A stretch of DNA of 64,000 nucleotides from Escherichia coli (GTDB taxonomy: Bacteria > Pseudomonadota > Gammaproteobacteria > Enterobacterales > Enterobacteriaceae): NCBI RefSeq assembly GCF_001677475.2, contig NZ_CP015229.1; one strand, 5' to 3'. Shown piece after piece: positions 581-64,000 of the stretch. Both the position numbers and the translations under genes were made by a program. The stretch's first letter is position 1; each line of letters opens with the position of its first letter. The notes beneath the pieces were generated by a model. That model did no database searches. It was not told the DNA's origin and was given only the letters and a program-made list of their open reading frames with translations.

Positions 581-2236
581 ATGGATCGTAGACGATTTAT
601 TAAAGGTTCAATGGCTATGGCCGCCGTGTGCGGTACCAGCGGCATTGCTTCTCTTTTTTCTCAGGCGGCATTCGCGGCAGATTCTGATATTGCCGACGGG
701 CAAACTCAGCGTTTTGACTTCTCCATTCTACAGTCAATGGCGCACGACTTAGCGCAAACAGCGTGGCGTGGTGCGCCGCGTCCGTTACCTGACACGCTGG
801 CGACAATGACGCCGCAGGCTTATAACAGTATTCAATACGACGCCGAAAAATCGCTCTGGCATAACGTTGAGATCCGTCAACTGGACGCTCAGTTCTTCCA
901 TATGGGAATGGGATTCCGTCGCCGCGTTCGTATGTTTTCTGTTGATCCAGCAACACATCTGGCGCGTGAAATTCACTTTCGCCCGGAGTTGTTCAAATAC
1001 AACGATGCAGGTGTTGATACCAAACAATTAGAAGGGCAAAGCGATCTCGGCTTTGCCGGTTTTCGCGTGTTTAAAGCCCCCGAACTGGCGCGCCGTGATG
1101 TAGTATCATTCCTCGGCGCGAGTTATTTCCGCGCCGTTGATGATACATATCAATACGGTTTGTCCGCCCGCGGCCTGGCGATCGACACTTACACCGACAG
1201 TAAAGAAGAGTTCCCCGACTTTACCGCCTTCTGGTTTGATACGGTAAAACCGGGGGCAACCACCTTTACCGTTTATGCGTTGCTCGATAGCGCCAGCATT
1301 ACTGGTGCCTATAAGTTCACTATCCATTGTGAGAAAAGTCAGGTGATTATGGATGTGGAAAATCACCTGTATGCGCGCAAAGACATTAAACAGCTGGGCA
1401 TTGCGCCGATGACCAGCATGTTCAGCTGCGGTACTAATGAACGTCGGATGTGCGATACAATTCATCCGCAAATTCATGACTCTGATCGTCTGTCCATGTG
1501 GCGGGGCAACGGCGAGTGGATTTGCCGTCCGCTGAATAATCCGCAAAAATTGCAGTTCAATGCTTACACCGACAACAACCCGAAAGGGTTTGGTTTATTG
1601 CAACTGGATCGTGATTTCTCCCATTATCAGGACATTATGGGCTGGTATAACAAACGCCCAAGTCTGTGGGTGGAACCGCGTAACAAGTGGGGTAAGGGCA
1701 CCATCGGCCTGATGGAAATCCCAACAACGGGCGAAACGCTGGATAACATTGTCTGCTTCTGGCAGCCAGAAAAAGCTGTAAAAGCGGGTGATGAGTTTGC
1801 ATTCCAGTATCGTCTGTACTGGAGTGCGCAACCGCCTGTTCATTGCCCATTAGCGCGCGTTATGGCAACGCGTACCGGCATGGGCGGTTTCCCGGAAGGT
1901 TGGGCGCCAGGTGAACACTATCCCGAAAAATGGGCGCGTCGTTTTGCCGTCGATTTCGTTGGTGGTGATCTGAAAGCTGCCGCACCAAAAGGCATTGAGC
2001 CGGTGATTACGCTTTCCAGTGGGGAAGCGAAGCAAATCGAAATTCTCTATATTGAACCCATTGATGGTTATCGTATTCAGTTTGACTGGTATCCGACGTC
2101 GGACTCCACTGATCCGGTCGATATGCGGATGTATCTGCGTTGTCAGGGCGACGCTATCAGTGAAACATGGCTGTATCAGTATTTCCCGCCAGCGCCGGAT
2201 AAACGTCAGTATGTTGACGACCGCGTGATGAGTTAA
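581..2236 (+). CDS. opgD: Glucans biosynthesis protein D (periplasmic, Tat signal)
   Basis: 551 aa; N-terminal twin-arginine motif RRRFIK followed by hydrophobic stretch and AFA cleavage-like site; matches recalled OpgD/MdoD length and sequence. Confidence 0.93.
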
Positions 2237-2375
2237 TTGTTTTTTCTTCGGCACCTTCTTCGGGAGGTGCTGTCTGGTTAAACACGATCCCGCTCGCATT
2301 TTTCCCTAAGTTAAATGAGTAATCTGATGGTGTGTATTTCAGATACAACTTGTCAGCCACTAACAGGGAGTGCGT

Positions 2376-2600
2376 ATGTTTCCAGAATACCGAGATTTAA
2401 TATCCCGTCTGAAAAACGAAAATCCTCGCTTTATGTCCTTGTTCGATAAACACAATAAACTTGATCATGAAATTGCCAGAAAGGAAGGTTCCGACGGTCG
2501 AGGTTACAATGCGGAAGTGGTCCGCATGAAAAAACAAAAGCTACAGTTAAAAGATGAGATGCTCAAAATCCTGCAGCAGGAGAGCGTCAAAGAGGTGTAA
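2376..2600 (+). CDS. ydcH: DUF465-family small protein YdcH
   Basis: 74 aa from ATG 2376 with GGGAG Shine-Dalgarno at 2366-2370; the track ORF starts 6 nt earlier at GTG. Confidence 0.85.
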   Translation: MFPEYRDLISRLKNENPRFMSLFDKHNKLDHEIARKEGSDGRGYNAEVVRMKKQKLQLKDEMLKILQQESVKEV

Positions 2601-2662
2601 ACTTTCCTAAGCCGCCAGCCAGGCGGCTTTTTTAACAACTGCATGGATTGACTGGAGATAAG

Positions 2663-3202
2663 ATGACTGAAACGATAAAAGTAAGCGAATCACTTGAATT
2701 ACATGCTGTTGCGGAAAGTCATGTCACACCTCTTTATCAGTTAATCTGTAAAAATAAAACCTGGTTACAGCAGTCGCTAAACTGGCCGCAGTTCGTTCAG
2801 AGTGAAGAGGACACGCGAAAAACGGTGCAGGGTAATGTGATGTTGCATCAACGCGGCTATGCCAAAATGTTCATGATTTTCAAAGAAGATGAACTTATCG
2901 GCGTTATCTCGTTTAATCGAATTGAACCACTGAATAAAACCGCTGAAATCGGCTACTGGCTGGACGAATCTCATCAGGGGCAGGGGATCATTTCTCAGGC
3001 GTTGCAGGCACTGATTCATCATTACGCCCAGTCTGGTGAACTTAGACGCTTCGTGATCAAATGTCGGGTGGACAATCCGCAAAGCAACCAGGTCGCTTTG
3101 CGCAATGGTTTTATTCTTGAAGGTTGCCTGAAACAGGCTGAGTTCCTGAATGATGCCTATGATGATGTGAACTTATACGCGCGTATTATCGATTCACAAT
3201 AA
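2663..3202 (+). CDS. rimL: Ribosomal protein L7/L12 serine N-acetyltransferase
   Basis: 179 aa from ATG 2663 preceded by GGAG; GNAT-fold sequence; K-12 synteny. Confidence 0.9.
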
Positions 3203-4174
3203 CCCTGCCAGCGGCGTTCGCGTAATGCGCTCCTCGCCGTTAATGACTTTTGGACCACGGACATGAACCGTGTCGCCATCAAAGGCTTCAACGACGGCGT
3301 GGTCGGTTAACTCCACATGGTTTTCAATTATCACCGCATCTGTAATACGGCTCTTACCTTGTATTACAACGTGCTCGTCGAGCAGAATCGGTCCGCCACG
3401 TACCACGGCATTTCCGCCAATCAAGACATGATGTTTTAACACACAATTACCTTCCACAATGGCATATTCCGCCACCTGCGAACTGTAATGAATCGTCGGA
3501 ATGGCATCTTCTTCTATGCCAGCTTTCACCTGCGCGTGACCGTAGACTTTAGCGCAATCGCATAGCCATACGTTGTTCTCTTCATTACCTTCAACACTGG
3601 CAAAATCAAAAACTTCGGCGCGATGTTCAATAAAAGCATACCGGACGACGGCATCGCCATAAATTTGTGCCTGGTGGACAATACGCGAGGCGCTAACCCT
3701 CGCGCGATCATAAATTTGTAGCAGGAGTTGATGGTCGGGCGTTAAGCCTTGTGCGGCGACGATCATAGAATGTTGATCAATTAAGGCGTGACCAAATATT
3801 CTACATTGACCGCAAACTAATGAGTCACGAATGGTGACGCTGTCACTTATATATGCACCCTGGCTGATTTCACTATTATCGATCCAGACATTATCCGTTG
3901 CGTATACCTCTCCCCACAGCACGCTTATGCCGGTGATACGCGTATTCCCGGAAATCACCGCTCCGCCGAACGCAATAGCATTCTGGTCGTAAATCCAGCA
4001 ATTTCCTTCCTGTGCTAACACCGTTTCGCAATCGATCCAGCCGCCAGCGGTTCCTGCTATCACATCGTTAAAATCGCTCATGGCGATAATCTGCCGTAAT
4101 AACACACTTTTTTTAGTGCCATCATCCTGATAACTAAAGGCTCGCTGTTCTTCACTTAGACGATATTTGCGCAT
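3194..4174 (-). CDS. ydcK: Hexapeptide-repeat family protein YdcK
   Basis: 326 aa, repetitive hexapeptide-like composition; convergent with rimL as in K-12. Confidence 0.85.
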
Positions 4175-4297
4175 AGCGTTTTCCCACAGGTGACTTACTA
4201 TAACCGTAGCAAATTCTGCGGCTCTGGCTATGCTCGAGAAAATTCCATAAAATGCATTTCAAATATACTTTATAAATTAAACAAAATGAGTAAGAAG

Positions 4298-5290
4298 ATG
4301 CAGAGCGATAAAGTGCTCAATTTGCCGGCAGGCTACTTTGGTATTGTGTTGGGGACGATAGGGATGGGATTTGCCTGGCGCTATGCCAGCCAGGTTTGGC
4401 AGGTCAGCCACTGGTTAGGGGATGGGCTGGTGATTCTGGCGATGATCATCTGGGGATTATTAACTAGCGCATTTATTACCCGACTCATACGCTTTCCGCA
4501 TAGCGTGCTGGCAGAAGTGCGCCATCCAGTGATGAGCAGTTTTGTGAGTTTGTTTCCGGCAACGACGATGCTGGTGGCGATTGGTTTTGTTCCGTGGTTT
4601 CGCCCACTGGCGGTGTGCCTGTTCAGTTTTGGTGTCGTGGTTCAGTTGGCTTATGCCGCCTGGCAAACTGCGGGATTATGGCGCGGATCTCACCCTGAAG
4701 AAGCTACCACGCCTGGACTGTATCTGCCGACAGTTGCCAACAACTTTATCAGCGCAATGGCCTGTGGTGCGTTGGGCTACACCGACGCCGGTCTGGTGTT
4801 TTTAGGCGCAGGCGTTTTCTCATGGCTAAGCCTTGAACCGGTGATCTTGCAGCGTCTGCGCAGTTCGGGAGAATTACCCACGGCACTGCGGACATCACTC
4901 GGCATTCAGCTCGCTCCTGCGCTGGTGGCCTGTAGTGCCTGGCTGAGCGTCAACGGCGGCGAGGGTGACACGCTGGCGAAAATGCTTTTCGGTTATGGAC
5001 TGCTGCAACTGCTGTTTATGCTACGTCTGATGCCATGGTATCTCTCCCAGCCATTTAATGCTTCATTCTGGAGTTTCTCGTTCGGCGTATCTGCACTGGC
5101 AACCACCGGTTTGCATCTGGGGAGTGGCAGCGATAATGGATTTTTCCATACGCTGGCGGTGCCGCTGTTTATCTTTACCAATTTTATTATTGCAATACTG
5201 CTCATCCGTACTTTTGCGCTTCTGATGCAGGGAAAATTGTTAGTCAGAACCGAGCGCGCCGTTTTAATGAAAGCAGAGGACAAAGAATGA
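4298..5290 (+). CDS. tehA: Tellurite resistance protein TehA (TDT family transporter)
   Basis: 330 aa polytopic membrane protein from ATG 4298 ([15 protein letters not shown]...); the track ORF has a 36-codon N-terminal extension judged non-coding. Confidence 0.92.
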
Positions 5291-8758: not shown

Positions 8759-10720
8759 GTGACCGTATCTTCTCATCGACTTGAACTGTTAAGCCCGGCA
8801 CGCGATGCCGCCATTGCCCGCGAAGCTATTTTGCACGGTGCCGATGCTGTTTATATCGGCGGCCCTGGTTTTGGTGCCCGTCATAATGCCAGTAATAGCC
8901 TGAAAGATATTGCCGAGCTGGTGCCGTTTGCCCATCGTTATGGTGCAAAAATTTTCGTCACGCTTAACACCATTCTGCATGATGATGAGCTTGAACCCGC
9001 GCAACGGCTGATTACCGACCTCTACCAGACCGGCGTCGATGCGCTGATTGTTCAGGATATGGGGATTCTGGAACTTGATATTCCGCCGATTGAACTGCAC
9101 GCCAGTACGCAGTGCGACATTCGCACGGTAGAGAAAGCGAAGTTCCTTTCTGATGTTGGCTTCACGCAGATTGTGCTGGCACGAGAGCTGAATCTTGAGC
9201 AGATCCGCGCGATTCACCAGGCCACGGACGCGACCATTGAATTCTTTATTCATGGCGCACTGTGCGTGGCCTATTCGGGTCAGTGCTACATTTCTCATGC
9301 GCAAACAGGGCGTAGCGCCAACCGTGGCGATTGCTCGCAGGCGTGCCGTTTGCCATACACATTGAAAGACGATCAGGGGCGGGTGGTTTCCTATGAAAAA
9401 CATCTGCTGTCGATGAAAGATAACGATCAGACTGCCAACCTCGGCGCGCTGATTGATGCTGGCGTACGCTCCTTCAAGATTGAAGGGCGTTACAAAGATA
9501 TGAGCTACGTGAAGAATATCACCGCCCATTATCGCCAGATGCTGGATGCCATTATTGAAGAACGTAGCGATTTGGCGCGAGCTTCATCCGGTCGTACTGA
9601 GCACTTCTTCGTACCGTCGACGGAAAAAACCTTCCATCGTGGCAGCACCGACTACTTTGTTAACGCGCGTAAAGGCGATATTGGCGCATTCGATTCACCG
9701 AAATTTATCGGCCTGCCGGTGGGTGAAGTATTGAAAGTGGCGAAAGATCATCTTGATGTTGAGGTTACCGAACCGCTGGCTAACGGCGATGGACTGAACG
9801 TAATGATTAAGCGTGAAGTCGTCGGCTTTCGTGCCAACACGGTAGAGAAAACTGGGGAAAATCAGTACCGCGTCTGGCCAAATGAGATGCCAGTGGAGCT
9901 GCACAAAATTCGCCCGCACCATCCGCTTAATCGCAACCTCGACCATAACTGGCAGCAGGCGTTGACCAAAACCTCCAGCGAACGTCGGGTGGCGGTAGAC
10001 ATTGAACTGGGCGGCTGGCAGGAACAACTGATTCTGACTCTGACCAGCGAAGAGGGCGTCAGTATCACTCATACGCTGGACGGGCAGTTCGACGAAGCGA
10101 ATAACGCCGAAAAAGCACTCCTCAATCTGAAAGAGGGATTGTCGAAGCTTGGGCAAACCCTCTATTACGCCCGCGATGTGCAAATTAATTTGCCGGGGGC
10201 GCTGTTTGTACCAAACAGTCTGTTAAACCAGTTCCGCCGTGAAGCTGCCGACATGCTGGATGCTGCACGTCTTGCCAGTTACCAGCGGGGCAGCCGTAAA
10301 CCGGTTGCTGATCCTGCGCCGGTTTATCCGCAAACGCATCTGAGTTTCCTCGCGAACGTATACAACCAGAAAGCGCGTGAATTTTATCATCGCTATGGTG
10401 TGCAGCTGATTGACGCGGCGTATGAGGCACATGAAGAGAAGGGCGAAGTCCCGGTGATGATCACCAAGCATTGTCTGCGCTTTGCCTTTAATCTGTGCCC
10501 GAAACAGGCGAAAGGCAATATCAAAAGCTGGAAGGCGACGCCAATGCAACTGGTTAACGGCGATGAAGTGTTAACGCTGAAATTTGATTGCCGCCCATGC
10601 GAGATGCACGTCATTGGCAAAATCAAAAATCACATACTGAAAATGCCGTTACCGGGAAGCGTAGTGGCATCCGTAAGTCCGGATGAGCTGCTGAAAACAT
10701 TGCCGAAGCGAAAAGGGTAA
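8759..10720 (+). CDS. rlhA: Peptidase U32 family protein RlhA/YdcP (23S rRNA C2501 hydroxylation)
   Basis: 653 aa if initiated at GTG 8759, the recalled YdcP length; the track ORF begins at 8717; U32 family by sequence recall. Confidence 0.85.
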   Translation: MTVSSHRLELLSPARDAAIAREAILHGADAVYIGGPGFGARHNASNSLKDIAELVPFAHRYGAKIFVTLNTILHDDELEPAQRLITDLYQTGVDALIVQDMGILELDIPPIELHASTQCDIRTVEKAKFLSDVGFTQIVLARELNLEQIRAIHQATDATIEFFIHGALCVAYSGQCYISHAQTGRSANRGDCSQACRLPYTLKDDQGRVVSYEKHLLSMKDNDQTANLGALIDAGVRSFKIEGRYKDMSYVKNITAHYRQMLDAIIEERSDLARASSGRTEHFFVPSTEKTFHRGSTDYFVNARKGDIGAFDSPKFIGLPVGEVLKVAKDHLDVEVTEPLANGDGLNVMIKREVVGFRANTVEKTGENQYRVWPNEMPVELHKIRPHHPLNRNLDHNWQQALTKTSSERRVAVDIELGGWQEQLILTLTSEEGVSITHTLDGQFDEANNAEKALLNLKEGLSKLGQTLYYARDVQINLPGALFVPNSLLNQFRREAADMLDAARLASYQRGSRKPVADPAPVYPQTHLSFLANVYNQKAREFYHRYGVQLIDAAYEAHEEKGEVPVMITKHCLRFAFNLCPKQAKGNIKSWKATPMQLVNGDEVLTLKFDCRPCEMHVIGKIKNHILKMPLPGSVVASVSPDELLKTLPKRKG

Positions 10721-11980: not shown

Positions 11981-13387
11981 ATGAAAAAATACCAGCAGCT
12001 TGCAGAACAATTACGCGAGCAGATTGCGTCGGGTATCTGGCAACCCGGCGATCGTTTGCCTTCGTTGCGTGACCAGGTGGCGCTTTCTGGCATGAGCTTT
12101 ATGACTGTCAGCCATGCCTATCAGTTGCTCGAAAGTCAGGGATATATTATCGCGCGACCGCAGTCGGGTTATTACGTTGCGCCACAGGCAATAAAAATGC
12201 CGAAAGCGCCAGTCATTCCAGTCACTCGAGATGAAGCAGTCGATATCAACACCTATATTTTTGATATGTTGCAGGCCAGTCGCGATCCGTCGGTCGTTCC
12301 GTTTGCCTCGGCCTTTCCCGACCCGCGACTTTTCCCCCTCCAACAACTCAACCGCTCGCTGGCGCAGGTAAGCAAAACCGCCACGGCGATGAGCGTGATT
12401 GAAAATTTACCGCCAGGAAACGCAGAACTGCGTCAGGCTATTGCTCGTCGCTATGCCTTACAGGGCATCACTATTTCTCCTGATGAAATTGTCATTACCG
12501 CCGGGGCGTTAGAGGCATTAAACCTCAGTTTACAAGCGGTAACGGAACCAGGCGATTGGGTGATAGTAGAGAATCCTTGTTTCTACGGCGCGTTGCAGGC
12601 GCTGGAGCGGTTACGGCTGAAGGCGTTATCGGTGGCGACGGACGTTAACGAAGGGATTGATCTCAAGGCGCTGGAACTGGCGTTGCAGGAGTATCCGGTG
12701 AAAGCGTGCTGGCTGATGACTAATAGCCAGAATCCACTCGGATTTACCTTGACGCCGCAGAAAAAAGCGAGGCTGGTAGCGTTGCTCAATCAGTACAACG
12801 TAACGCTGATTGAAGATGATGTTTACAGCGAACTTTATTTTGGACGGGAAAAACCGCTGCCTGCGAAAGCGTGGGATCGCCACGATGGCGTTTTGCATTG
12901 CTCTTCGTTTTCGAAATGTCTGGTGCCTGGTTTTCGTATTGGTTGGGTCGCCGCCGGAAAACATGCACGTAAAATTCAACGCTTGCAGTTGATGAGTACG
13001 CTTTCCACCAGCTCACCGATGCAGCTTGCGCTGGTGGATTACCTTTCCACGCGCCGATACGACGCCCATCTTCGTCGCCTGCGTCGCCAGCTTGCGGAAC
13101 GTAAACAACGTGCCTGGCAGGCACTGCTGCGTTATCTGCCTGCGGAAGTTAAAATTCATCATAATGACAGCGGTTATTTTCTCTGGCTGGAGCTCCCCGA
13201 GCCGTTAGATGCCGGCGAATTAAGCCTGGCGGCACTGACGCATCATATCAGTATTGCGCCGGGTAAAATGTTTTCTACCGGTGAAAACTGGTCACGTTTT
13301 TTTCGTTTTAATACCGCGTGGCAGTGGGGAGAACGTGAAGAACAGGCGGTAAAACAATTAGGCAAACTTATTCAAGAACGGCTGTAA
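11981..13387 (+). CDS. ydcR: MocR/GntR-family regulator with aminotransferase-like domain, YdcR
   Basis: 468 aa; N-terminal wHTH and large PLP-fold C-terminal domain. Confidence 0.88.
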   Translation: MKKYQQLAEQLREQIASGIWQPGDRLPSLRDQVALSGMSFMTVSHAYQLLESQGYIIARPQSGYYVAPQAIKMPKAPVIPVTRDEAVDINTYIFDMLQASRDPSVVPFASAFPDPRLFPLQQLNRSLAQVSKTATAMSVIENLPPGNAELRQAIARRYALQGITISPDEIVITAGALEALNLSLQAVTEPGDWVIVENPCFYGALQALERLRLKALSVATDVNEGIDLKALELALQEYPVKACWLMTNSQNPLGFTLTPQKKARLVALLNQYNVTLIEDDVYSELYFGREKPLPAKAWDRHDGVLHCSSFSKCLVPGFRIGWVAAGKHARKIQRLQLMSTLSTSSPMQLALVDYLSTRRYDAHLRRLRRQLAERKQRAWQALLRYLPAEVKIHHNDSGYFLWLELPEPLDAGELSLAALTHHISIAPGKMFSTGENWSRFFRFNTAWQWGEREEQAVKQLGKLIQERL

Positions 13388-17555: not shown

Positions 17556-18980
17556 ATGCAACATAAGTTACTGATTAACGGAGAACTGGTCAGCGGCGAA
17601 GGGGAAAAACAGCCTGTCTATAATCCGGCAACGGGGGACGTTTTACTGGAGATTGCCGAGGCATCCGCAGAGCAGGTCGATGCTGCTGTGCGCGCGGCAG
17701 ATGCAGCATTTGCCGAATGGGGGCAAACCACGCCGAAAGTGCGTGCGGAATGCCTGCTGAAACTGGCTGATGTTATCGAAGAAAATGGTCAGGTTTTTGC
17801 CGAACTGGAGTCCCGTAATTGTGGCAAACCGCTGCATAGTGCGTTCAATGATGAAATTCCGGCGATTGTCGATGTCTTTCGCTTTTTCGCCGGAGCAGCT
17901 CGCTGCCTGCATGGTCTGGCGGCAGGTGAATATCTTGAAGGTCATACTTCGATGATCCGTCGCGATCCGTTGGGGGTCGTGGCTTCTATCGCACCGTGGA
18001 ATTATCCGCTGATGATGGCTGCGTGGAAACTGGCTCCGGCGCTGGCGGCAGGGAACTGCGTAGTGCTCAAACCATCAGAAATTACCCCGCTGACCGCGTT
18101 GAAGTTGGCAGAGCTGGCGAAAGATATCTTCCCGGCAGGCGTGATTAACGTACTGTTTGGCAGAGGCAAAACGGTGGGAGATCCGCTGACCGGACATCCC
18201 AAAGTGCGGATGGTGTCGCTGACGGGCTCTATCGCCACTGGCGAGCACATCATCAGCCATACCGCGCCGTCCATAAAGCGTACTCATATGGAACTTGGAG
18301 GCAAAGCGCCAGTGATAGTTTTTGATGATGCGGATATTGAAGCGGTGGTCGAAGGTGTACGTACTTTTGGCTATTACAATGCCGGACAGGATTGTACAGC
18401 GGCTTGTCGGATCTATGCGCAAAAAGCCATTTACGATACGCTGGTGGAAAAACTTGGTGCTGCAGTGGCAACGTTAAAATCGGGTGCACCGGATGACGAG
18501 TCTACGGAGCTTGGACCTTTAAGCTCGCTGGCGCATCTCGAACGCGTCAGCAAAGCGGTAGAAGAGGCGAAAGCGACAGGGCACATCAAAGTGATCACTG
18601 GCGGTGAAAAGCGCAAGGGTAATGGCTATTACTATGCGCCGACGCTACTGGCTGGCGCATTACAGGACGATGCCATCGTGCAAAAAGAGGTATTTGGTCC
18701 GGTAGTGAGTGTTACCCTCTTCGACAACGAAGAACAGGTGGTGAACTGGGCAAATGACAGCCAGTACGGACTTGCATCCTCGGTATGGACGAAAGATGTG
18801 GGCAGGGCGCATCGCGTCAGCTCGCGGCTGCAATATGGTTGTACCTGGGTCAATACCCATTTCATGCTGGTAAGTGAAATGCCGCACGGTGGGCAGAAAC
18901 TTTCTGGTTACGGCAAGGATATGTCACTTTATGGGCTGGAGGATTACACCGTCGTCCGCCACGTCATGGTTAAACATTAA
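17556..18980 (+). CDS. patD: Gamma-aminobutyraldehyde dehydrogenase (aldehyde dehydrogenase family)
   Basis: 474 aa; aldehyde dehydrogenase motifs ELGGKAP and catalytic cysteine region; K-12 synteny. Confidence 0.92.
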
Positions 18981-29040: not shown

Positions 29041-29352
29041 AAACCGGGAGGACATTGGATTATTCGGGATTTGGCGGGATTAGATTTAGTGGGGCTTGCA
29101 AGCCTGTAGGACAGATTTTAGCCGTTACATCTTGAAACGCGAAAGATTGTTGGAAACAGCTTTTGATTCATTAAAGACACGAAAAGCAATTACTTCACGC
29201 ATCATTTCAAGTACAGCTTCAAAAATGCTTCAAAAACGGTAACAACCAGGCTTTCGGCAAGTGATGTGTGTCAAAAACAATCATCACTGTTTGGGTATCT
29301 TACATATGTAATTACCTAGAGTGAAGTTTATGTCTTAGCTATTACCTGGTTG

Positions 29353-36421: not shown

Positions 36422-36494
36422 AAAAAGTTTCCTCTGTTTAGTGAGTGGATTCTGGCGGTGTTGCCGCACCGCCCCCTTTTCTGGAGGTACGATA

Positions 36495-37046
36495 ATGAAT
36501 CGCACATCCCTGATTAAATTAATTCATGTCGCCCGTCGTGATCTACAACTCGACGATGACACTTACCGCGCCTTTCTGGTGCAGTGCACAGGCAAGACCA
36601 GCTGCCGCGAGCTGTCCGTTGCACAACTGGAACGTGTGCTCGATGCCATGAAAGAGTGCGGTTTTAAAAAGCAGAAAAAACATCCCCGCCGTCGCTTTAA
36701 GGGGCATGTCACACCGCGCGAGAAGATTTATAAAATCTGGCAGCAGATGTTTCAGGATGGCTTTATCGCTGATGGCAGCGATGTCGCGCTGGACAAATAC
36801 GTTGCACGCCTGACGGCCAGACGTAATGGCGGTCAGGGGGTTTCCACGCTGGCCTGGTGTCACGGGGAATCGTTGCAGGTTGTGCTCGAAACGCTCAAGC
36901 AGTGGCACATGCGCTGCATCCGGGAAGCCTTTGCCCGACATGGTGTGCCGTTACCTGCAAGCCCATCCGGGCGGGAACTACGCGGATATGATGCACTGAC
37001 CAGTGCATATGCCCGCGCACGAAACAGCGGGAGAATTGCTGTATGA
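36495..37046 (+). CDS. gemA: GemA-family protein (Mu gp16-like)
   Basis: 183 aa from ATG 36495 with GGAGGT Shine-Dalgarno; position upstream of mor. Confidence 0.8.
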   Translation: MNRTSLIKLIHVARRDLQLDDDTYRAFLVQCTGKTSCRELSVAQLERVLDAMKECGFKKQKKHPRRRFKGHVTPREKIYKIWQQMFQDGFIADGSDVALDKYVARLTARRNGGQGVSTLAWCHGESLQVVLETLKQWHMRCIREAFARHGVPLPASPSGRELRGYDALTSAYARARNSGRIAV

Positions 37047-37492
37047 AACAGATGAAAGAGCAGGATTTATTCGAAGACCTTCGGGACGACAGCGTTCTGG
37101 AATATCTTCATGATTACCAGGAAAACACCGCTTATCCGGCGTTACTTTCTGAACTGAACGCACTGCTGCGTAAAGAGCTGGCCCGGATTGGCGCAGACCC
37201 TGCTCATTCCCTTGAGCTGGTTGTGGCGATTTGTCGCCATATCGGCGGGATGCAGGTTTATGTTCCGAGGGGGAATATTCTGGAGAATCTTGTCCGGGAT
37301 ATGCGTATCTGGCGTGATTTTAACGGTCATAATATTCCTGAACTGGTTCAGCGTTACGGGGTGACGTATAAAACCGTCTACAAGGCCATCAAACGGATGC
37401 GACGTCTGGAGCGCAATAAATACCAGCCGGATTTGTTTTACCCCTCCCCGAACCTGCCTCACCCCGTTCGTCGTCCACCACGACGCCCTTAA
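37043..37492 (+). CDS. mor: Mor transcription activator (Mor/C family)
   Basis: 149 aa; sequence closely matches recalled Mu Mor (DLFEDLRDDSVLEYL, VVAICRHIGGMQVYVPRG, YKAIKRMRRL). Confidence 0.88.
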   Translation: MKQMKEQDLFEDLRDDSVLEYLHDYQENTAYPALLSELNALLRKELARIGADPAHSLELVVAICRHIGGMQVYVPRGNILENLVRDMRIWRDFNGHNIPELVQRYGVTYKTVYKAIKRMRRLERNKYQPDLFYPSPNLPHPVRRPPRRP

Positions 37493-37500
37493 TCAATGAA

Positions 37501-37522
37501 GCCGGTAAATCCGGCTTTTTTT
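37501..37522 (+). terminator. Rho-independent terminator after mor
   Basis: GCCGG-TAAAT-CCGGC hairpin followed by a run of seven T. Confidence 0.6.
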
Positions 37523-37577
37523 ATGCCTCCGGCACCATGAAGCAGACCACGTTTAAATCTGCTTCACAGGTGCTTTT

Positions 37578-41236: not shown

Positions 41237-42768
41237 CACAGATGAACACGTTCAGTGAATCCGATGTTCTGCTGCCGTATCAGAAACGCTGGGTGGCGGA
41301 TGATTCAAAACTGAAAATCGCCGAGAAATCACGCCGTACCGGGTTAACCTGGGCGGAAGCGGCAGATGCAGCACTGACCGCATCACTGAAGAAGGAAAAC
41401 GGCGGGCGCGATCACTTTTATATCGGTTCGAATAAGGAGATGGCCCGCGAATTTATCGACGCCGTAGCGATGTGGGCGAAAGCGTTTAATGCGGCAGCGG
41501 AAGAAATCCGCGAGGAAGTGATCACCGACGAAGACATGGACATTCTGACGTTCGTCGTGTACTTCGCCAGCGGTTTTAAGGTCAAGGCGCTGTCCAGCAA
41601 TCCGGGCAACATTCGCGGGATGCAGGGGAATGTCACCATCGACGAAGCGGCGTTTCATGAAAAACTGGATGAGGTACTCAAGGCGGTCACACCACTGACC
41701 ACGTGGGGCGGTAAGGTTCGCCTTATCTCCACCCATGACGGCGTGGACAACCCGTTTAACCAGCTGATTCAGGAGAGCCGCGCAGGCAAAAAAGATTACC
41801 GTATTCACACCATCACGCTGGATGACGCCTGCAGTGACGGGCTGTACCGGCGTATCTGTCAGGTACGCGGCATGGAGTGGTCACCGGAGGCCGAGGCGGA
41901 ATGGAAAGAAGGCCTGCTGCGAAATACCGCCACCCGCGAAGACGCCCTGGAGGAATATTACTGCGTCCCGAAAAACGGCGGCGGCACGTATATCCCCCGC
42001 TCAATGCGTGAACGTGCAGCCCGTGGCACCGGAAAAGTGTTGCGCTTTACCGGCACACCGGAATTTAACGCACTGACGGAAAGCCAGCGCCGGGCAGATA
42101 TCCGGGAATGGCTGGAAACGGTGGTGCGCCCTGAACTGGAAAAACTCCCACAGAACCTGCGCCACTGTCTGGGGGAAGACTTTGCGCGTTCGGGTGACCT
42201 GACTGTGCTGGCCCCGGTGACGGTGAACGACGACACCACCCGCGAGGTGCCGTTCCTGGTTGAGCTTGCCAATGTGCCGTTTAAACAGCAGGAGCAGGTA
42301 CTGTTCTGGCTTTGCGATCGTCTGCCCCGTCGTGACGGCATCAAAATGGATGCGCGGGGGAATGGTCAGTATCTGGCAGAACAGGCGGCGGAGCGGTACG
42401 GCGACGAGGTGGAACAGGTGATGCTGTCCGTGGCGTTTTACCGTGAAAACATGCCCCGTTTCCGTGCGGCGTTTGAAGATGATGAGCTGATCCTTCCGAA
42501 GCATGAAGACGTGATCAATGACCTCGGGGCCATTCAGTTACTGCGTGGCGTTCCCGGCATTGATGATTCACGAACCAGAGGCAGCGACGGTCACAAACGT
42601 CACGGCGACGCCGCTGTGGCCATTTTCCTGGGCTTCCTTGCCAGTAAAGATGACTGCCACCGTTACGAACTGCACCGTCTGAACCGCCCGGCGAAACCGG
42701 AAGAACGCAACGCGCGCCGCCAGCTGAAGCTGACGCGCGGCCTGAAAAATGAGGGAGGTTTACTGTGA
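41233..42768 (+). CDS. Terminase large subunit (Mu gp28 family)
   Basis: 511 aa; position and sequence character. Confidence 0.88.
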   Translation: MTQMNTFSESDVLLPYQKRWVADDSKLKIAEKSRRTGLTWAEAADAALTASLKKENGGRDHFYIGSNKEMAREFIDAVAMWAKAFNAAAEEIREEVITDEDMDILTFVVYFASGFKVKALSSNPGNIRGMQGNVTIDEAAFHEKLDEVLKAVTPLTTWGGKVRLISTHDGVDNPFNQLIQESRAGKKDYRIHTITLDDACSDGLYRRICQVRGMEWSPEAEAEWKEGLLRNTATREDALEEYYCVPKNGGGTYIPRSMRERAARGTGKVLRFTGTPEFNALTESQRRADIREWLETVVRPELEKLPQNLRHCLGEDFARSGDLTVLAPVTVNDDTTREVPFLVELANVPFKQQEQVLFWLCDRLPRRDGIKMDARGNGQYLAEQAAERYGDEVEQVMLSVAFYRENMPRFRAAFEDDELILPKHEDVINDLGAIQLLRGVPGIDDSRTRGSDGHKRHGDAAVAIFLGFLASKDDCHRYELHRLNRPAKPEERNARRQLKLTRGLKNEGGLL

Positions 42769-44336
42769 ACCAGAAACAACAGGCCGGGGCCGCACGCCGT
42801 CTGCTGAACCCGGCAACCGGTGAGGAAGACACGCTGAAAAAAGAGGCGCTCAACGAAGCACAGGCCCGTCCGCGTCAGGCTGGCGTGCGTCCGGCCTCGC
42901 CGGGCATCAGCATCGCCTCCGGGCTGAATCCCGGCAGGCTGGCAGGCATTCTGCGCAATGCCGCCAACGGTATCACGCGTGATTTTTTTATCCTTGCCGA
43001 AGAGATGGAAGAACGCGATTTGCATTACGCCTCGGTGCTGCGCACCCGCAAGCTGACGGTGGCGGGTATTGAACCGGTGGTGGTGGCTGCCAGTGATGAC
43101 GATGCCGACGTACAGCTGGCGGATGCCATACGTGCGCTGATGGAAGCCCCGCAAATCCCCGAGCTGATGTTTGATTTGCTCGACGGGCTGGGAAAAGGCG
43201 TGGCGGTCTGTGAAATTTTGTGGAACACCCGCAACAACCACTGGGTGCCCCGTGATTATGAGTGGGTTGATCCCCGTTTTCTGAAAGCCGAAAAGCCCAC
43301 TCTGCGCCGGTTCCGCCTGCTGACTGACGATGAACCGGTGGATGGCGTACCGCTGACACCGGGAAAATTCATTGTTCACCAGCCGCGTCTGAAATCCGGT
43401 CTGCCGCTGCGTAACGGTCTGGCCCGTCTGGTGGCTGTGATGTATATGCTGAAATCCTTTACCGTGCGTGACTGGTGGGCATTTGCGGAAAAATTCGGCA
43501 TTCCGGTTACGGTGGGGAAATACGGTCCCAACGCCACGGAGGAGCAAATCCGCGTGCTGATTGATGCGATTGCCTCCATTGCCTCAGATGCCGGGTGTGC
43601 CATTCCGCAGTCCATGCAACTGGAGATGCAGGAAACCGCCAGCCGGAATAACGGCGGCGCGCTGTTCCGTGAAATGGCTGAATGGTGCGATGCGCAAATC
43701 AGTAAAGCCGTACTGGGGCAGACCATGACCACAGATAATGGCAGTTCGCGTTCACAGGCGGACGTGCACAATCAGGTGCGCATGGACATTGTGCGCTGGG
43801 ACGCGCGACAGCTGGCTAACACGCTGAATGAATATCTGGTGCGTCCCTACATCGAGGCCAACTACGGGCCACAGGCGCACTATCCCCGTGTTGTTCTGCG
43901 TATCAGTGAAGCCGAAGATCTGAAGGCGCTGACTGATGCTCTGGTGCCACTGATTGACCGGGGGATGCGGGTTCAGGAATCGGAGCTGCGGGATCGGTTC
44001 GGCCTGGCGGAACCGGACGAAGGGGCTGATGTTCTGCATCCGGTGTCTGCCGGAATGTCAGGTGATATGGCGATGAACCACGAGCGCGTCGCCCTGAACC
44101 GGGAACACCCCGACGAACTGGCACAGATGGTGGATGATGCCCTGCGTGACTGGCAGAAAACCGGCGAGGCGTTCACAAACCCGGTGCTGACACTGGCGCA
44201 GGAATGCGACAGTTTTGATGACTTTCTGAAACGCCTGCCTGAGCTTCAGGAAACGCTGAACGCGGACGACTTTGCCCTGCAACTGGCGGAGGTGTGCTTT
44301 AAGGCCCGTGCGCTGGGAGACACTGGTCATGCGTGA
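42765..44336 (+). CDS. Portal protein (Mu gp29 family)
   Basis: 523 aa; follows terminase with ATGA overlap. Confidence 0.88.
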   Translation: MNQKQQAGAARRLLNPATGEEDTLKKEALNEAQARPRQAGVRPASPGISIASGLNPGRLAGILRNAANGITRDFFILAEEMEERDLHYASVLRTRKLTVAGIEPVVVAASDDDADVQLADAIRALMEAPQIPELMFDLLDGLGKGVAVCEILWNTRNNHWVPRDYEWVDPRFLKAEKPTLRRFRLLTDDEPVDGVPLTPGKFIVHQPRLKSGLPLRNGLARLVAVMYMLKSFTVRDWWAFAEKFGIPVTVGKYGPNATEEQIRVLIDAIASIASDAGCAIPQSMQLEMQETASRNNGGALFREMAEWCDAQISKAVLGQTMTTDNGSSRSQADVHNQVRMDIVRWDARQLANTLNEYLVRPYIEANYGPQAHYPRVVLRISEAEDLKALTDALVPLIDRGMRVQESELRDRFGLAEPDEGADVLHPVSAGMSGDMAMNHERVALNREHPDELAQMVDDALRDWQKTGEAFTNPVLTLAQECDSFDDFLKRLPELQETLNADDFALQLAEVCFKARALGDTGHA

Positions 44337-45093
44337 AACCCTCATCCCGAAAGAGGCGCTGGCGTGGCTGAAGGCGAAGAAGCTGCGCCCCGGTTTTGAT
44401 TACCGGGATGTGTGGCGGGAAGAACACCGGAACAGCTTCACCGTGGCAAAAATGCTGCAACTGGATTTGTTGTCGGATGTGAAATCCCTTGTGGAAGACG
44501 CCCTGCAAAGCGGGCAGACGTTCAGCGAGTTCCGGGAGATGCTGCAACCGCTGCTGATAAAACGCGGATGGTGGGGCGTACAGGAGATGGATGATCCGCT
44601 GACGGGCGAAAGGCGCACCGTGCAACTGGGCAGCGACCGCCGCCTCCGCACGATTTTTGACACCAACATGCGCACCGCCCGCGCGGCGGGCCAGTGGGAA
44701 CGCATTCAGCGGACAAAGCGGGCCATGCCGTATCTGATTTATGAGCTGGGGCCATCCCGCGAGCACCGGGCGGAGCATGTGAAATGGGCGCGTCTGTGTC
44801 TGCCTGTAGACCACCCGTTCTGGCAGACGCATTTCGCCCCTAACGGCTGGGGCTGCAAATGCACCATCCGTCAGGTCAGCCGTGGTGAGTATGCGCAACT
44901 GGCGGCACAGGGCACCATTCACACCGAAGCGCCGGAAATCAGGACTGTCCGCTGGGTGAACAAACGTACGGGCGAAGAGGAAGAGGTGCCGGAAGGGATT
45001 GATCCGGGCTGGAACTACAATCCCGGTATAAACCGTGAGCAGGAGCTGGCGCGCCAGCTGGCGACAAAACAGGCCCGTTTTGACAGTGAGTAA
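44329..45093 (+). CDS. Head morphogenesis protein (Mu F family)
   Basis: 254 aa from ATG 44329 overlapping the portal stop. Confidence 0.85.
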   Translation: MRETLIPKEALAWLKAKKLRPGFDYRDVWREEHRNSFTVAKMLQLDLLSDVKSLVEDALQSGQTFSEFREMLQPLLIKRGWWGVQEMDDPLTGERRTVQLGSDRRLRTIFDTNMRTARAAGQWERIQRTKRAMPYLIYELGPSREHRAEHVKWARLCLPVDHPFWQTHFAPNGWGCKCTIRQVSRGEYAQLAAQGTIHTEAPEIRTVRWVNKRTGEEEEVPEGIDPGWNYNPGINREQELARQLATKQARFDSE

Positions 45094-45235
45094 CCCTCCC
45101 GCCGTAAATCCCCCTGAAACGCATCAGAAACGCGTTTTTTATTCTGATGGCGTGAATGTGCATTCTGACGTTTTTGAAGATGCTGTGGCGTTTTTGAAGG
45201 GGTTTTGAAGGGGGTATTTCCCCGTTTTCAGTGAA

Positions 45236-45257
45236 GCCGGTAAATCCGGCTTTTTTT
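45236..45257 (+). terminator. Rho-independent terminator after F; same sequence as the one after mor
   Basis: GCCGG-TAAAT-CCGGC plus seven T; 26 bp identical to 37497-37522. Confidence 0.6.
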
Positions 45258-45306
45258 CTGCCTTCCGCATACTGACCGTCGGTAACCCCAGACGACGGAG
45301 ACTGAC

Positions 45307-46263
45307 ATGCAACCGGAACTGCTGGCGCTGTGTTTTTCCCTGCCAGAACCCATCCCTGAGCTGACACCTGCTCAACTGCCGGAATGGCTCGAACTTGTCC
45401 CTGCGGGTGAGTTCACCGGGCGCGATGGCCGGACGTGGATTAACCGCAATCCGCATGAGGTGGTTGCCCGTTCGTCCGGCATCAAAATTCCGGTGGATAT
45501 TGAACACGCCACCGAAATTAAAGGCCCGCGTGGTGAAGATGCTCCGGCGTATGGCTGGGTGGAAGAACTGCGGGTGACGGACAGCAGCACCATTGAAGGG
45601 CGTGTTGTCTGGAGCGAGTCCGCCCGCTGGATGCTGAGCGAGCGCCGCTACCGCTATTACAGCCCGGCGTTTTTCTTTGACGCGGAAGGCGTAGTGACGC
45701 GCCTGTCCAGCGTCGGGCTGACCAACAAACCTAACCTGGATTTTCCTGCACTGAATACGGAGAAAAACCTGATGACAGTACCTGTGCAAATCACCGGCCT
45801 GCTTGGGCTGGCTGAATCTGCCACGGTGGACGATACCGTGGCCGCCATTAAACAACTTCAGGAGAACGAACAGGTGGCGCTGAACCGCGCACAGACACCT
45901 GATCTGACGAAGTTTGTGCCGGTGGAAACCCACAATCTGGCCCTGAACCGTGCCGAAACCGCAGAACAACGCCTTCAGCAACTTGAAGAGAAGGAAGCAG
46001 AAGCGCTTGTGGATGCGGCCATCGAAGCCGGAAAAGTGGCCCCGGCAAACCGTGACATGTTCCTTGCCACCTGCCGCACGGAAGAAGGCCGCAAACAGTT
46101 TGCGGAGTACACCAGAGGCGCACAGCCGCTGGTGAACAACGACAAGCCCAGCCAGGGCAAGGATAAACCCGCGCAGACACTGACCGACACCGAACTGGCG
46201 ATGTGCCGCAGCATGGGTATTACCGGGGAAGAGTTCCTCGCCGCTAAACCGAAACAGGAGTAA
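45307..46263 (+). CDS. Head protease/scaffold protein (Mu I family)
   Basis: 318 aa; immediately upstream of the major capsid gene. Confidence 0.8.
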   Translation: MQPELLALCFSLPEPIPELTPAQLPEWLELVPAGEFTGRDGRTWINRNPHEVVARSSGIKIPVDIEHATEIKGPRGEDAPAYGWVEELRVTDSSTIEGRVVWSESARWMLSERRYRYYSPAFFFDAEGVVTRLSSVGLTNKPNLDFPALNTEKNLMTVPVQITGLLGLAESATVDDTVAAIKQLQENEQVALNRAQTPDLTKFVPVETHNLALNRAETAEQRLQQLEEKEAEALVDAAIEAGKVAPANRDMFLATCRTEEGRKQFAEYTRGAQPLVNNDKPSQGKDKPAQTLTDTELAMCRSMGITGEEFLAAKPKQE

Positions 46264-46270
46264 GTAACAC

Positions 46271-47176
46271 ATGTCACAGACTATCAGTTCTGAAATCCTT
46301 CATGCACTGACCACCTGCCTGAGCGCCGCCTTTACCCGTGGACTGAGTGGTGTCGAACCGCAGTGGAATCGTATTGCTTCTGAGGTGCCGAGTTCGTCCG
46401 CCTCCAACACCTACGGCTGGATGAAAGATTTACCGGACATCAAAGAATGGGTCGGTGAGCGTCAGCTGGCAACGCTGGACGGTTATGGTTACACCATCAC
46501 CAACAAACTCTGGGAAAGTTCCATTCGCGTTAAGCGCGAACACATTGAAGATGACCAGATAGGTCAGTACAGCATTACCGCCGAACGCTATGGCCGTATG
46601 ACTGCTGTGTTCCCGGACAAGCTGTGTTACGCCCTGTTGTGTGCCGGGTTTAACACCCTGTGCTTTGACGGCCAGAACTTCTTTGATGAAGACCACCCGC
46701 TGGGCGACGGCACCTACAGCAACGTTGTCGGTACACCAGGAACGGACCAGGGCGAACCGTGGTTTCTGATTGATGAGTCGCAGGTGCTGAAACCCATCAT
46801 CTGGCAGACGCGACGCGCCTTTAAATTTGAAGCCCTGGACGATCTGAACAGCGAGCACACCTTCAAGAACCACGAGTTCCTGTACGGCGTGGACGGTCGC
46901 TGTAATGCGGGCTTCGGCTTCTGGCAGACCGCCGTCGGTTCCCGTGCAGCACTGACGGTGGAGAACTACAAAAAAGCCAATGAGTTGCTGCGGGGCATGA
47001 AGGGCACCAACGGTGAGCCGCTGGGCATCCGCCCGACCACCCTTGTGGTGGGGCCGAAAAACCGTGCGGACGCGAAGCTCATTATTGACGCCATGCTGGT
47101 TAACGGCGGCGATTCCAACATCTGGTACAAGGATGTGGAGATCGTGGACAGCCCGTACATCACCACCCCGGCATAA
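46271..47176 (+). CDS. Major capsid protein (Mu T family)
   Basis: 301 aa; position and sequence character. Confidence 0.88.
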   Translation: MSQTISSEILHALTTCLSAAFTRGLSGVEPQWNRIASEVPSSSASNTYGWMKDLPDIKEWVGERQLATLDGYGYTITNKLWESSIRVKREHIEDDQIGQYSITAERYGRMTAVFPDKLCYALLCAGFNTLCFDGQNFFDEDHPLGDGTYSNVVGTPGTDQGEPWFLIDESQVLKPIIWQTRRAFKFEALDDLNSEHTFKNHEFLYGVDGRCNAGFGFWQTAVGSRAALTVENYKKANELLRGMKGTNGEPLGIRPTTLVVGPKNRADAKLIIDAMLVNGGDSNIWYKDVEIVDSPYITTPA

Positions 47177-47200
47177 CCCGTCATCCGTAATCTGTAACCC

Positions 47201-47236
47201 GCAGTTAAAAGGCGCTGCGAATGCCCTTTTAACTGC
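47201..47236 (+). terminator. Stem-loop after the major capsid gene (terminator or attenuator candidate)
   Basis: GCAGTTAAAAGG...CCCTTTTAACTGC inverted repeat 25 bp after the capsid stop, followed by the palindrome GCCTTTTAAAAGGC. Confidence 0.4.
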
Positions 47237-47254
47237 CTTTTAAAAGGCAGAGTC

Positions 47255-47566: not shown

Positions 47567-48003
47567 TGGGGTACATCACGCAGGAAGACCTGTTACGCGC
47601 GGACGGCAATCTTGTCTGGAACATGGCGATTAACCGGGAAACCAACGGGCTGGACGAGGACAAAATCCGTCAGGCCATCAGTGATGCCGAAGCGGAAATT
47701 GATTCGTTTCTGTCCCGCCGCTACCAGCTGCCGCTGGGAGTGACGGAAATCCCGCGCCCGCTGCAACGCGTGGCAGTATCGCTGGCGTTTTACTGGTTGT
47801 CAGAGCGTGACAATCAAATCACTGAGCTGATCCAGAAACGCTACGACGACGCCATTAAAACCCTGCGTGAGATGGCGAACGGCACCCGTGACCTGGGTCT
47901 GCCGACGTATGCCACCCCGGCAGAAACCGACCACGGGAAGATCATTGTAGTGGGTGCCAATGCCCGGCTGTTCACCCGTAACAACCTGAAAGGGGTGCTG
48001 TGA
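47566..48003 (+). CDS. Mu gp36-like protein (DUF1320 family)
   Basis: 145 aa; position. Confidence 0.6.
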   Translation: MGYITQEDLLRADGNLVWNMAINRETNGLDEDKIRQAISDAEAEIDSFLSRRYQLPLGVTEIPRPLQRVAVSLAFYWLSERDNQITELIQKRYDDAIKTLREMANGTRDLGLPTYATPAETDHGKIIVVGANARLFTRNNLKGVL

Positions 48004-48545
48004 TGGGGATTTCTGTACAGGTCAGCGGTGACCAGCGTCTGGAGGATATCCGCCGCGCCGTTGAAAAGCTGGCAGATGGTTCATTGCAGGCAGAGCTGCT
48101 GGAAAGCATCGGTGCGGTGGTGGAATCACAGACCCGCCGCCGCATCATCGATGAGAAAACCAGTCCGGGTGGCGAACGCTGGCCGGACTGGTCTGACGGG
48201 TACAAAAAGACCCGCCACGGCAACCAGAGTCTGCTGCGCGGTGAAGGCCATCTGCTGGAGAGTATCCAGTACATCGTGGAAAACCGTGTGGTGCGTATCG
48301 GTTCACCGCTGGATTATGCCCGCATCATGAATGACGGCTTTTCCGGCAGTGTGCCGGTCAGCGCCCACAAACGGCTTATCTCGCAGTGTTTCGGGCGGGC
48401 GCTGAAATATCCGGTCTGGCAGACCGTCGGCGCACATAACCGCATGATGAACATTCCACAACGTGAATTTCTGGGGCTGTCTTCTGCCAACCAGCAGGAG
48501 CTGCAACAGGTTATCAGTCATTTCTGGAAGGAGGTTCTGCCATGA
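48000..48545 (+). CDS. Virion morphogenesis protein (Mu G family)
   Basis: 181 aa; sequence character of Mu G-like late proteins. Confidence 0.75.
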   Translation: MMGISVQVSGDQRLEDIRRAVEKLADGSLQAELLESIGAVVESQTRRRIIDEKTSPGGERWPDWSDGYKKTRHGNQSLLRGEGHLLESIQYIVENRVVRIGSPLDYARIMNDGFSGSVPVSAHKRLISQCFGRALKYPVWQTVGAHNRMMNIPQREFLGLSSANQQELQQVISHFWKEVLP

Positions 48546-62839: not shown

Positions 62840-62863
62840 GTCATCATTTTGTATAGTTTATAA

Positions 62864-62887
62864 CGATCGATACAATCGTATCGATCG
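62864..62887. promoter_or_regulatory. GATC-containing inverted repeat upstream of com/mom; candidate Dam-methylation-sensitive operator
   Basis: CGATCGATAC-AATC-GTATCGATCG; two GATC sites at 62865-62868 and 62883-62886, about 75-100 bp upstream of com. Confidence 0.5.
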
Positions 62888-62961
62888 TCAGTTTGCATCA
62901 TCTGTGATTAAATACCCTGGCCCTCAGGGCTATCGTATCTGGTTAATACACAGGTGGGATC

Positions 62962-63147
62962 ATGGATGCTGTTCGTTGTAAAAACTGCAATAAATTGCTG
63001 TTTAAAGGAAGTTTTAAGCATATAGAAATCAAATGCCCTCGTTGTAAACGTTACATTGTCATGTCGAGTGCCCGGGAGCATCCCACGGAGCTGTATTGTG
63101 GGAAAAGAGAAGAAATCACGCATCCTTACAAAACCCTGCGTTATTGA
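62962..63147 (+). CDS. com: Com zinc-finger translational activator of mom
   Basis: 61 aa; CKNC...CPRC...C..H zinc-finger pattern as in Mu Com; overlaps the mom start. Confidence 0.8.

Positions 63148-63835: not shown

Positions 63836-63839
<4 letters not shown>
63816..63839 (+). terminator. Rho-independent terminator after mom
   Basis: CAGCGGC-CAAT-GCCGCTG hairpin followed by TTTTAT. Confidence 0.6.
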
Positions 63840-63999
<160 letters not shown>

Positions 64000-64000
64000 A

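Follow-up and report, generated by a model that had tools for sequence, protein, structure and literature searches.

The 213-bp gap between the head genes F and I of a Mu-like prophage of Escherichia coli (positions 45094-45306) raises the question of what it controls. It lies in a 64,000-nucleotide stretch of contig NZ_CP015229.1, which was analysed in full and is called the window hereafter. An earlier note had named the gap as the candidate position both for a late promoter, which in Mu precedes gene I, and for the central strong gyrase site (SGS). From comparisons with Mu and with relatives of the prophage, we read the gap as a composite control region with the layout of the Mu G-I gap, the gyrase site on the left and the head-operon promoter on the right, and we give this reading a probability of about 0.6. 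Its support consists of sequence homology, register, conservation, periodicity and position; that gyrase binds and cleaves, that Mor binds, and that transcription starts and terminates as proposed is inferred from these. The combined elements are most likely a further example of two known kinds and nothing new in kind.

Prophage context and layout of the F-I gap

The left end of the prophage (TGTATTGATTCACTTGAAGTACGAAAAAAACC...) is near-identical to attL of Mu. The genes and the gap, delimited from open reading frames and Pfam matches, are the following.

29014: left end, followed in order by the repressor, ner-like, A and B genes, then GemA (36441-37046)
37043-37492, plus strand: Mor-family gene (PF08765, E = 3.6e-30)
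37578: start of lys
41233: start of the terminase gene
42765-44336: portal gene (PF06074)
45093: stop of the F-family ORF (PF04233)
45094-45306, plus strand: F-I intergenic region, 213 bp
45307-46263, plus strand: I-family ORF (PF10123)
46271-47176: T gene, the major head gene (PF10124)
48000-48545: G homologue of the prophage

The order of the head genes is portal, F, I, T, and by sequence comparison the DNA of this head module does not resemble that of Mu. It was present in about 45-50 complete E. coli genomes at 95-97% identity, and the F-I gap was carried by about 45 E. coli genomes at 94-99.5% identity and unannotated in all of them. Searches of 50,697 phage records with megablast and blastn returned no relative of the F-I region or of the head module, and a search of genome contigs with the I protein led to a single distant Spirochaete locus. 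An intact relative in ETEC1732 (L006, positions 2156-37415) is 35,260 bp long and lies inside flhA with a 5-bp target duplication.

Past mom (stop at 63793) and a hairpin, the sequence of the window diverges from that of the intact relative, which runs at that point into Mu-type R-end sites ending CGCCGCTTCA; positions 63838-64000 of the window have instead three direct repeats TATCTTGAAnAAnTTCCATAT. The copy of the prophage in the window may be truncated or interrupted. No Mu-type right end was seen in the last 160 bp of the window (63838-64000), and a gyrase site in the gap may therefore be idle in this copy. The gap behind T (47177-47254) contains two palindromes (AGTTAAAAGGCG...GCCCTTTTAACT and CTGCCTTTTAAAAGGCAG) and the strongest AA/TT helical periodicity of the window, and may be a terminator or attenuator behind the capsid gene.

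The elements that the earlier note had described in the F-I gap were all found where it had placed them, between the F stop at 45093 and the I start at 45307: the self-complementary AAACGCGTTT at 45128-45137, three GTTTTTGAAG-like units within 45170-45210 (starting at 45170, 45190 and 45201), and a terminator, i.e. a hairpin followed by seven T residues, at 45233-45257. Two of the GTTTTTGAAG units, at 45170-45179 and 45190-45199, are exact, and the one at 45201-45210 carries a single mismatch (GGTTTTGAAG). Analysis with TRF gave an 11-bp unit, TTTTGAAGGGG, present 2.0 times at 45192-45213 with a 100% match, and a repeat search placed a third copy of this type at 45172, the spacings being 20 and 11 bp. 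With at most one mismatch allowed, about 5.9 occurrences of the GTTTTTGAAG decamer are expected per 64 kb on both strands, and we estimated the probability of three copies on the same strand within 41 bp to be about 1e-5; chance clustering is therefore rejected.

A candidate gyrase site in the left part of the gap

The following features were recognised to the left of the hairpin.

45119-45153: imperfect inverted repeat of 11 bp, ACGCATCAGAA / TTCTGATGGCGT, conserved
45155-45166: near-palindrome GAATGTGCATTC, predicted gyrase core, from the alignment with Mu and the 'gyrase cut site' annotation of the Mu record
45170-45216, plus strand: 47-bp module GTTTTTGAAG-N10-GTTTTTGAAGGGGTTTTGAAGGGGGTA with phased T-tracts, homologous to the Mu SGS right arm
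45210-45223, plus strand: small hairpin GGGGGTATTTCCCC, with stem bases that vary among relatives

The Mu SGS (nt ~17812-17944) is cut at 17879/80, in the G-I gap according to the Mu record, and this position aligned to 45158/45159 of the window (GAAT|GTGC|ATTC) with an uncertainty of about 6 bp on either side. In a hand count, 10 of the 13 specified positions of the Lockshon-Morris cleavage consensus matched the core. The aligned core was the most variable stretch of the region (6 of 16 sites among eight relatives), and the exact cleavage position is therefore a guess.

Comparison of the two sites showed that each occupies an intergenic gap directly upstream of I, close to the middle of the prophage. 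The candidate in the window is separated from the left end (29014) by 16.1 kb and lies at about 45% of the length of the intact relative L006, while the Mu site is at 48.7%. The right arms could be aligned in the comparison with the Mu gyrase-site sequence that the earlier note had called for, and it was the GTTTTTGAAG repeats that aligned with the right arm of Mu. The centres of the T-runs were at nearly equal distances from the aligned cut, namely +14.5, +34.5, +46 and +68 in the window and +14, +35.5, +48.5 and +70 in Mu, and the phasing of the T-tracts ran on past the module through TATTT (45215-19) and GTTTTC (45224-29). The two sites differ in the upstream gene, which is F in the window and G in Mu, and in the repeated unit, which is TTTTTGAAG(G) in the window and TTTTTAAAC in Mu, while core and left arm are unrelated in sequence.

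At the strong gyrase site of Mu, the right arm alone is essential, the left arm can be dispensed with, and bending signals in phase are important (PMC10052514, PMC13284261). This fits a conserved module with a variable core and left flank, and in both systems conservation is seen in the right arm and not in the core and left arm. When the 10-11.5 bp periodicity of TT was scored, positions 45136-45235 ranked first of about 12,800 windows in the 64 kb, and the right arm of Mu, used as a positive control, ranked first of about 7,300 windows in Mu, so that the phased T-tract signal is the strongest of the window and of the Mu genome, respectively. The first rank was obtained at all three window lengths, with a metric that was picked among four after the results were known. 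Surrogate scores derived from the published 133-bp gyrase consensus (identity and W/S pattern) gave z values of about 2.5-2.9 in the window, but they failed on Mu as positive control, ranking its SGS only 29-398, and these values form no part of the argument. A Topo-Seq motif matrix for gyrase is found in Supplementary Table DS10 (PMC6379681); the corresponding score of the Mu SGS is 14.3.

Compared directly, Mu and the window are modestly similar and differ mostly by A/G exchanges, and the homology was linked through prophages of the SE11/PEC422 type. A blastn search with the 213-bp gap matched 46 bp at 95.7% identity in the G-I region of Mu-variant prophages of SE11, PEC422 and TUM9757, three E. 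coli genomes outside the window type. Across G-I, the SE11, PEC422 and L031 prophages share 85% identity with Mu (94% in the I protein), and they carry the window-type module (44/47) where Mu has its own right arm. The sequence of the SE11 type is Mu-like up to the cut (GATAAAATC|ACGC) and then reads TTTTTGAAGGTTCTGTGGCGTTTTTGAAGGGGTTTTGAAGGGGGTA where Mu has ATTTTTTAAAACGCGCCACGGGATTTTTAAACCGGTATTTAACGGTGTA. Together with TUM9757, these prophages share the module with the window and differ from it by a Mu-like G, the Mu-like core and a C-type PI promoter. They amount to a natural hybrid of Mu flanks and the right arm of the window.

An exact 22-mer scan of IMG/VR returned 22 loci, mostly of the window type and one of the SE11 type. 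A third lineage (L017 and L027) has the module at 40-41/47, with otherwise unrelated flanks, about 20-22 bp before the start of an I homologue. The identity of the module across the lineages was 44, 41 and 40 of 47 (85-94%), 22 of the 47 positions being fixed as identical by the 22-mer search and the remaining 25 matching at 18-22, versus 9-20/47 in the adjacent 47 bp on either side, and the I proteins of the three lineages share only 25-32% identity.

Two other observations were made on related contigs. The 7-kb contig of L027 (IMGVR_UViG_2547132272_000021, positions 1926-5023) has a Mor-family ORF, a 143-aa ORF, the module, I and T, with a Mor-box-like AGAAAAGCCACTGAAA (11/16) about 70 bp upstream of the module. 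In O157:H7 Sp18-like prophages, the F-G gap bears a RefSeq 'tRNA-OTHER' on the minus strand (L004 2065-2145 and L005 2064-2143), and the G-I gap contains the Mu-like right-arm units GATTTTCTAAC and TATTTAACGG.

The inverted repeat at 45119-45153 would be the left arm of the putative gyrase site. Only 1 of its 37 sites varied among the eight relatives, versus 17-18% at third codon positions (P ~0.007). The AAACGCGTTT palindrome sits in the 12-nt loop of this repeat, and no role for it was found in this analysis. The fold of the repeat (-11.5 kcal/mol, z = -1.6, no U-run) was no better than that of shuffled sequences, and it was rejected as a terminator for F given the missing U-run and this z value. 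No match to the IHF consensus was seen by eye on the left repeat. We also rejected a long-range inverted repeat centred on the predicted cut (45117-33 / 45188-204), with 13 matches of 17, about 0.3 such repeats being expected by chance in a region of this size according to our estimate. Positions 45123-45135 resemble Mu 17824-17837, the copy in the window being 20 bp nearer the aligned cut, and could be a remnant or a common left-arm feature. The small hairpin GGGGGTATTTCCCC probably belongs to the right arm and is not a separate signal.

On the evidence of these comparisons, positions ~45116-45230 are probably a strong gyrase site of the Mu type, as the earlier note had suggested. Gyrase would cleave near 45153-45163, and the module at 45170-45216, with its continuation to ~45229, would serve to wrap the C-terminal domain of GyrA and to present the T segment. 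Supercoiling from the middle of the prophage would then be highly processive and would help the two distant prophage ends to synapse for replicative transposition. Oram and Pato (2004) reportedly tested five prophage sites, and the variant of the window is not known to be among them.

A predicted Mor-type promoter at the terminator hairpin

The right part of the gap, and a second copy located upstream of lys, contain the following features.

45230-45245, plus strand: predicted activator box of the Mor type, AGTGAAGCCGGTAAAT, equivalent to positions -51 to -36 of Mu Pm
45233-45257, plus strand: hairpin GAAGCCGG-TAAAT-CCGGCTTC with a T7 run (GAAGCCGGTAAATCCGGCTTT and the T-run), overlapping the activator box
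45268-45273, plus strand: predicted -10 hexamer CATACT, at the same offset as TATCCT of Mu Pm, with a predicted start at ~45281
45276-45300, plus strand: inverted repeat CCGTCG...CGACGG (fold -9.7 kcal/mol, z = -1.4, not significant alone)
45297-45300, plus strand: Shine-Dalgarno sequence GGAG, ahead of the I ATG (45307)
37495-37538, plus strand: second set of box, hairpin, T7 run and -10, behind the Mor-like gene and ahead of lys, from the in-register alignment

At Mu Pm, the Mor dyad spans -51 to -36 with its centre at -43.5, and the bottom-strand T residues at -12, -4, -1, +1, +3 and +4 are permanganate-reactive (PMC4287176). A single register of the Mu sequence found directly behind mor (AGTAAAGCCGGTTAATCCGGCTTTTTTTACGTCCTCAATATCCT) fits the six reactive positions, with +1 at Mu 9224, TATCCT at 9211-16 and the dyad at 9173-88. 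In this ungapped register, AGTGAAGCCGGTAAAT is identical to AGTAAAGCCGGTTAAT of Mu (9173-9188) at 14 of 16 positions. Comparison with Mu Pm as a whole (9173-9224) showed an identical GCCGG-N5-CCGGC hairpin and T7 run, which in Mu lie behind mor and overlap the promoter, an equal offset of the -10, no -35, and an activator that is 63% identical to Mor. The differences are that the copies in the window precede the late genes lys and I while Mu Pm serves the middle operon encoding C, that the dyad differs at both of two positions related by symmetry (A4 to G and T13 to A), and that the -10 is CATACT or CACCAT instead of TATCCT.

The hairpin has an 8-bp stem and a 5-nt loop, and its core has an RNA fold of -12.6 kcal/mol (z of about -3.2 to -3.5). 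With its GC-rich stem and U-run, it is a predicted intrinsic terminator. A match to the sroD sRNA (Rfam RF00370), obtained with permissive thresholds, was rejected, since it scored 22.1 bits against a gathering threshold of 50 (E = 0.27) and was driven by this hairpin. The box and T-run showed no variation at 34 sites among the eight relatives and one variable site of 34 among 25 loci, and the -10 segment varied at 1 of 25 sites among the eight relatives, versus 17-18% at the third codon positions of F and I (P ~1.4e-4).

In a repeat search, a 49-nt stretch that contains the hairpin was found again at 37486-37534, in the interval from the Mor-family gene to lys. In this copy the box is AATGAAGCCGGTAAAT and the -10 is CACCAT at 37533-38, with a predicted start at ~37546. 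The 19-mer TGAAGCCGGTAAATCCGGC occurs exactly twice in the 64 kb, and no further activator box was found within three mismatches of it before the tail genes or com/mom; there are thus two boxes in all, and the tail genes and com/mom have no recognised box. Upstream of com, positions 62840-62962 contain a GATC cluster, as in the Dam-regulated region of Mu Pmom, and no recognisable C or Mor box.

Neither a sigma-70 consensus promoter (in 44500-45900), nor a -35 hexamer, nor a TGn before CATACT, i.e. an extended -10, was found. For a promoter that depends on an activator, the missing consensus is to be expected and carries no weight in either direction. Such promoters are built without -35 elements (PMC4287176).

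The protein encoded at 37043-37492 is 63% identical to Mu Mor and 32% identical to Mu C, and is presumed from this likeness to be the cognate activator. No second member of the Mor/C family was found by tblastn in the window or in L006. Between 36441 and 37578, GemA and the single Mor-family gene are followed directly by lys; gp18-20 and a C gene are absent, and this implies a cascade of two steps, from early to late, instead of three. L006 has Mor and an extra 165-aa ORF, and likewise no C.

Very probably, then, positions 45230-45281 form a promoter of the Mu Pm type that depends on an activator. The single Mor-like protein, as a dimer, would occupy AGTGAAGCCGGTAAAT and bring sigma-70 RNA polymerase to CATACT, and transcription would start at ~45281 and read into I, T and the downstream genes. 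As RNA, the hairpin and its U7 run should stop transcripts coming from the lys-F operon.

The proposal of a late promoter before I is thus favoured by computation as far as a promoter is concerned, while its type is that of Mor and Pm and not the C-dependent late type. The evidence for it is confined to the terminator hairpin and the ~25 bp after it; the palindrome and the repeats carry none. The expected similarity to the Mu late promoter was found in part. Like C-dependent PI of Mu, the predicted promoter is located between the gyrase site and gene I, its -10 area resembles that of PI (CCGCATACTGAC versus CCGCAAACTGAC in Mu), and an inverted repeat precedes the Shine-Dalgarno sequence (CTGCTCA...TGAGCAG in Mu). 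However, the prophage has no C gene, a Pm-type box replaces the C box, and the likeness is to Pm. The C box (ATAACCCC or TTAT-N6-ATAA) was absent from the F-I gap, while it was seen in Mu Pmom, Mu PI and PI of the SE11 type. We read the promoter as a putative counterpart of PI in function, which a Mor-like protein would drive in a phage without C.

Alternative readings and significance

The repeats could belong to the promoter, as an upstream curved-DNA or UP-like element or as a platform for Fis, IHF or alpha-CTD that boosts transcription of I, which we consider unlikely. Promoters are often stimulated by curved DNA upstream, and the phased T-tracts lie at -110 to -53 from the predicted start. 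At Mu Pm, alpha-CTD contacts the DNA just upstream of Mor (PMC4287176). However, the distance from the module to the I ATG is about 96 bp in the window, 130 bp in the SE11 type and about 20-22 bp in L017 and L027, and the promoter type beside the module differs as well (a Mor box, a C box and none visible, respectively); because of these distances (22, 96 and 130 bp), we assign the repeats to the right arm of a gyrase site and not to the promoter. The module also aligns with the segment of Mu that was shown experimentally to be the gyrase right arm, which again argues against a promoter element. Quite improbable is the reading of the GTTTTTGAAG units as iteron-like targets of a phage or host protein with sequence specificity, which might, for instance, connect the centre of the prophage with its left end. 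In its favour, the reverse complement of the unit is found as an 11-bp tandem (CTTCAAAAAT, CTTCAAAAAC) at 29217-29237, in the interval from attL site L3 to the repressor gene's 3' end (and also at Mu nt 203-225 and L006 2358-2378), and the G residues between the T-tracts are invariant across lineages, seemingly beyond the needs of bending. An unrelated GC-rich viral contig, L023 (IMGVR_UViG_3300042691_026848, positions 12563-12700), has TTTTGAAGGGG arrays of three to four units, twice, adjoining Toprim primase and AAA_25 helicase genes, and these arrays look like an iteron-type origin. On the other hand, we know of no candidate protein, the right arm of Mu functions with A in place of G (TTTTTAAAC), and periodicity and position match the gyrase model. 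In a broader version, with an equally low probability, the 47-bp TTTTGAAGGGG-type module would be a movable, sequence-specific cassette passed between Mu-like phages that are otherwise unrelated, and a non-gyrase protein, of the phage or the nucleoid, would recognise centre and left end via the GAAG(G) blocks and the attL tandem. If so, the two would be physically coupled in a 'Mu domain' and the site would be more than a gyrase-wrapping sequence.

The hairpin raises a separate doubt, since it could be a terminator alone, duplicated at two operon ends, with I expressed by read-through or from elsewhere. The canonical hairpin with its T7 run, the weak -10 hexamers (CATACT and CACCAT) and the failure to detect a sigma-70 consensus promoter agree with it. 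We nevertheless hold it to be distinctly unlikely, as conservation between the two copies and with Mu Pm reaches upstream (CAGTGAAG) and continues ~20 nt past the T-run, to a hexamer at the exact offset of Pm, and as genes behind a strong terminator need a new start. That the whole region is a non-functional spacer with repeats that arose by chance or slippage is extremely improbable: the clustering probability of ~1e-5 speaks against it, as do the conservation of the module in three lineages with diverged flanks and the invariance of the promoter part, and it is on clustering and conservation that chance is excluded.

The preferred reading thus remains that of a composite region with a gyrase site and a Mor-type promoter. 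As such, it would be a natural sequence variant of the sole known "strong gyrase site" class. The retention of the right-arm module in three phage lineages amid different surroundings provides independent comparative support for the right arm as the functional determinant, the bases kept being the T-runs at an 11-bp pitch and the GAAGGGG between them. The region is unannotated in about 50 E. coli prophages and about 20 IMG/VR contigs and therefore matters for annotation. The phage itself seems to express its late genes straight from promoters of the Pm type, using one Mor-like activator.
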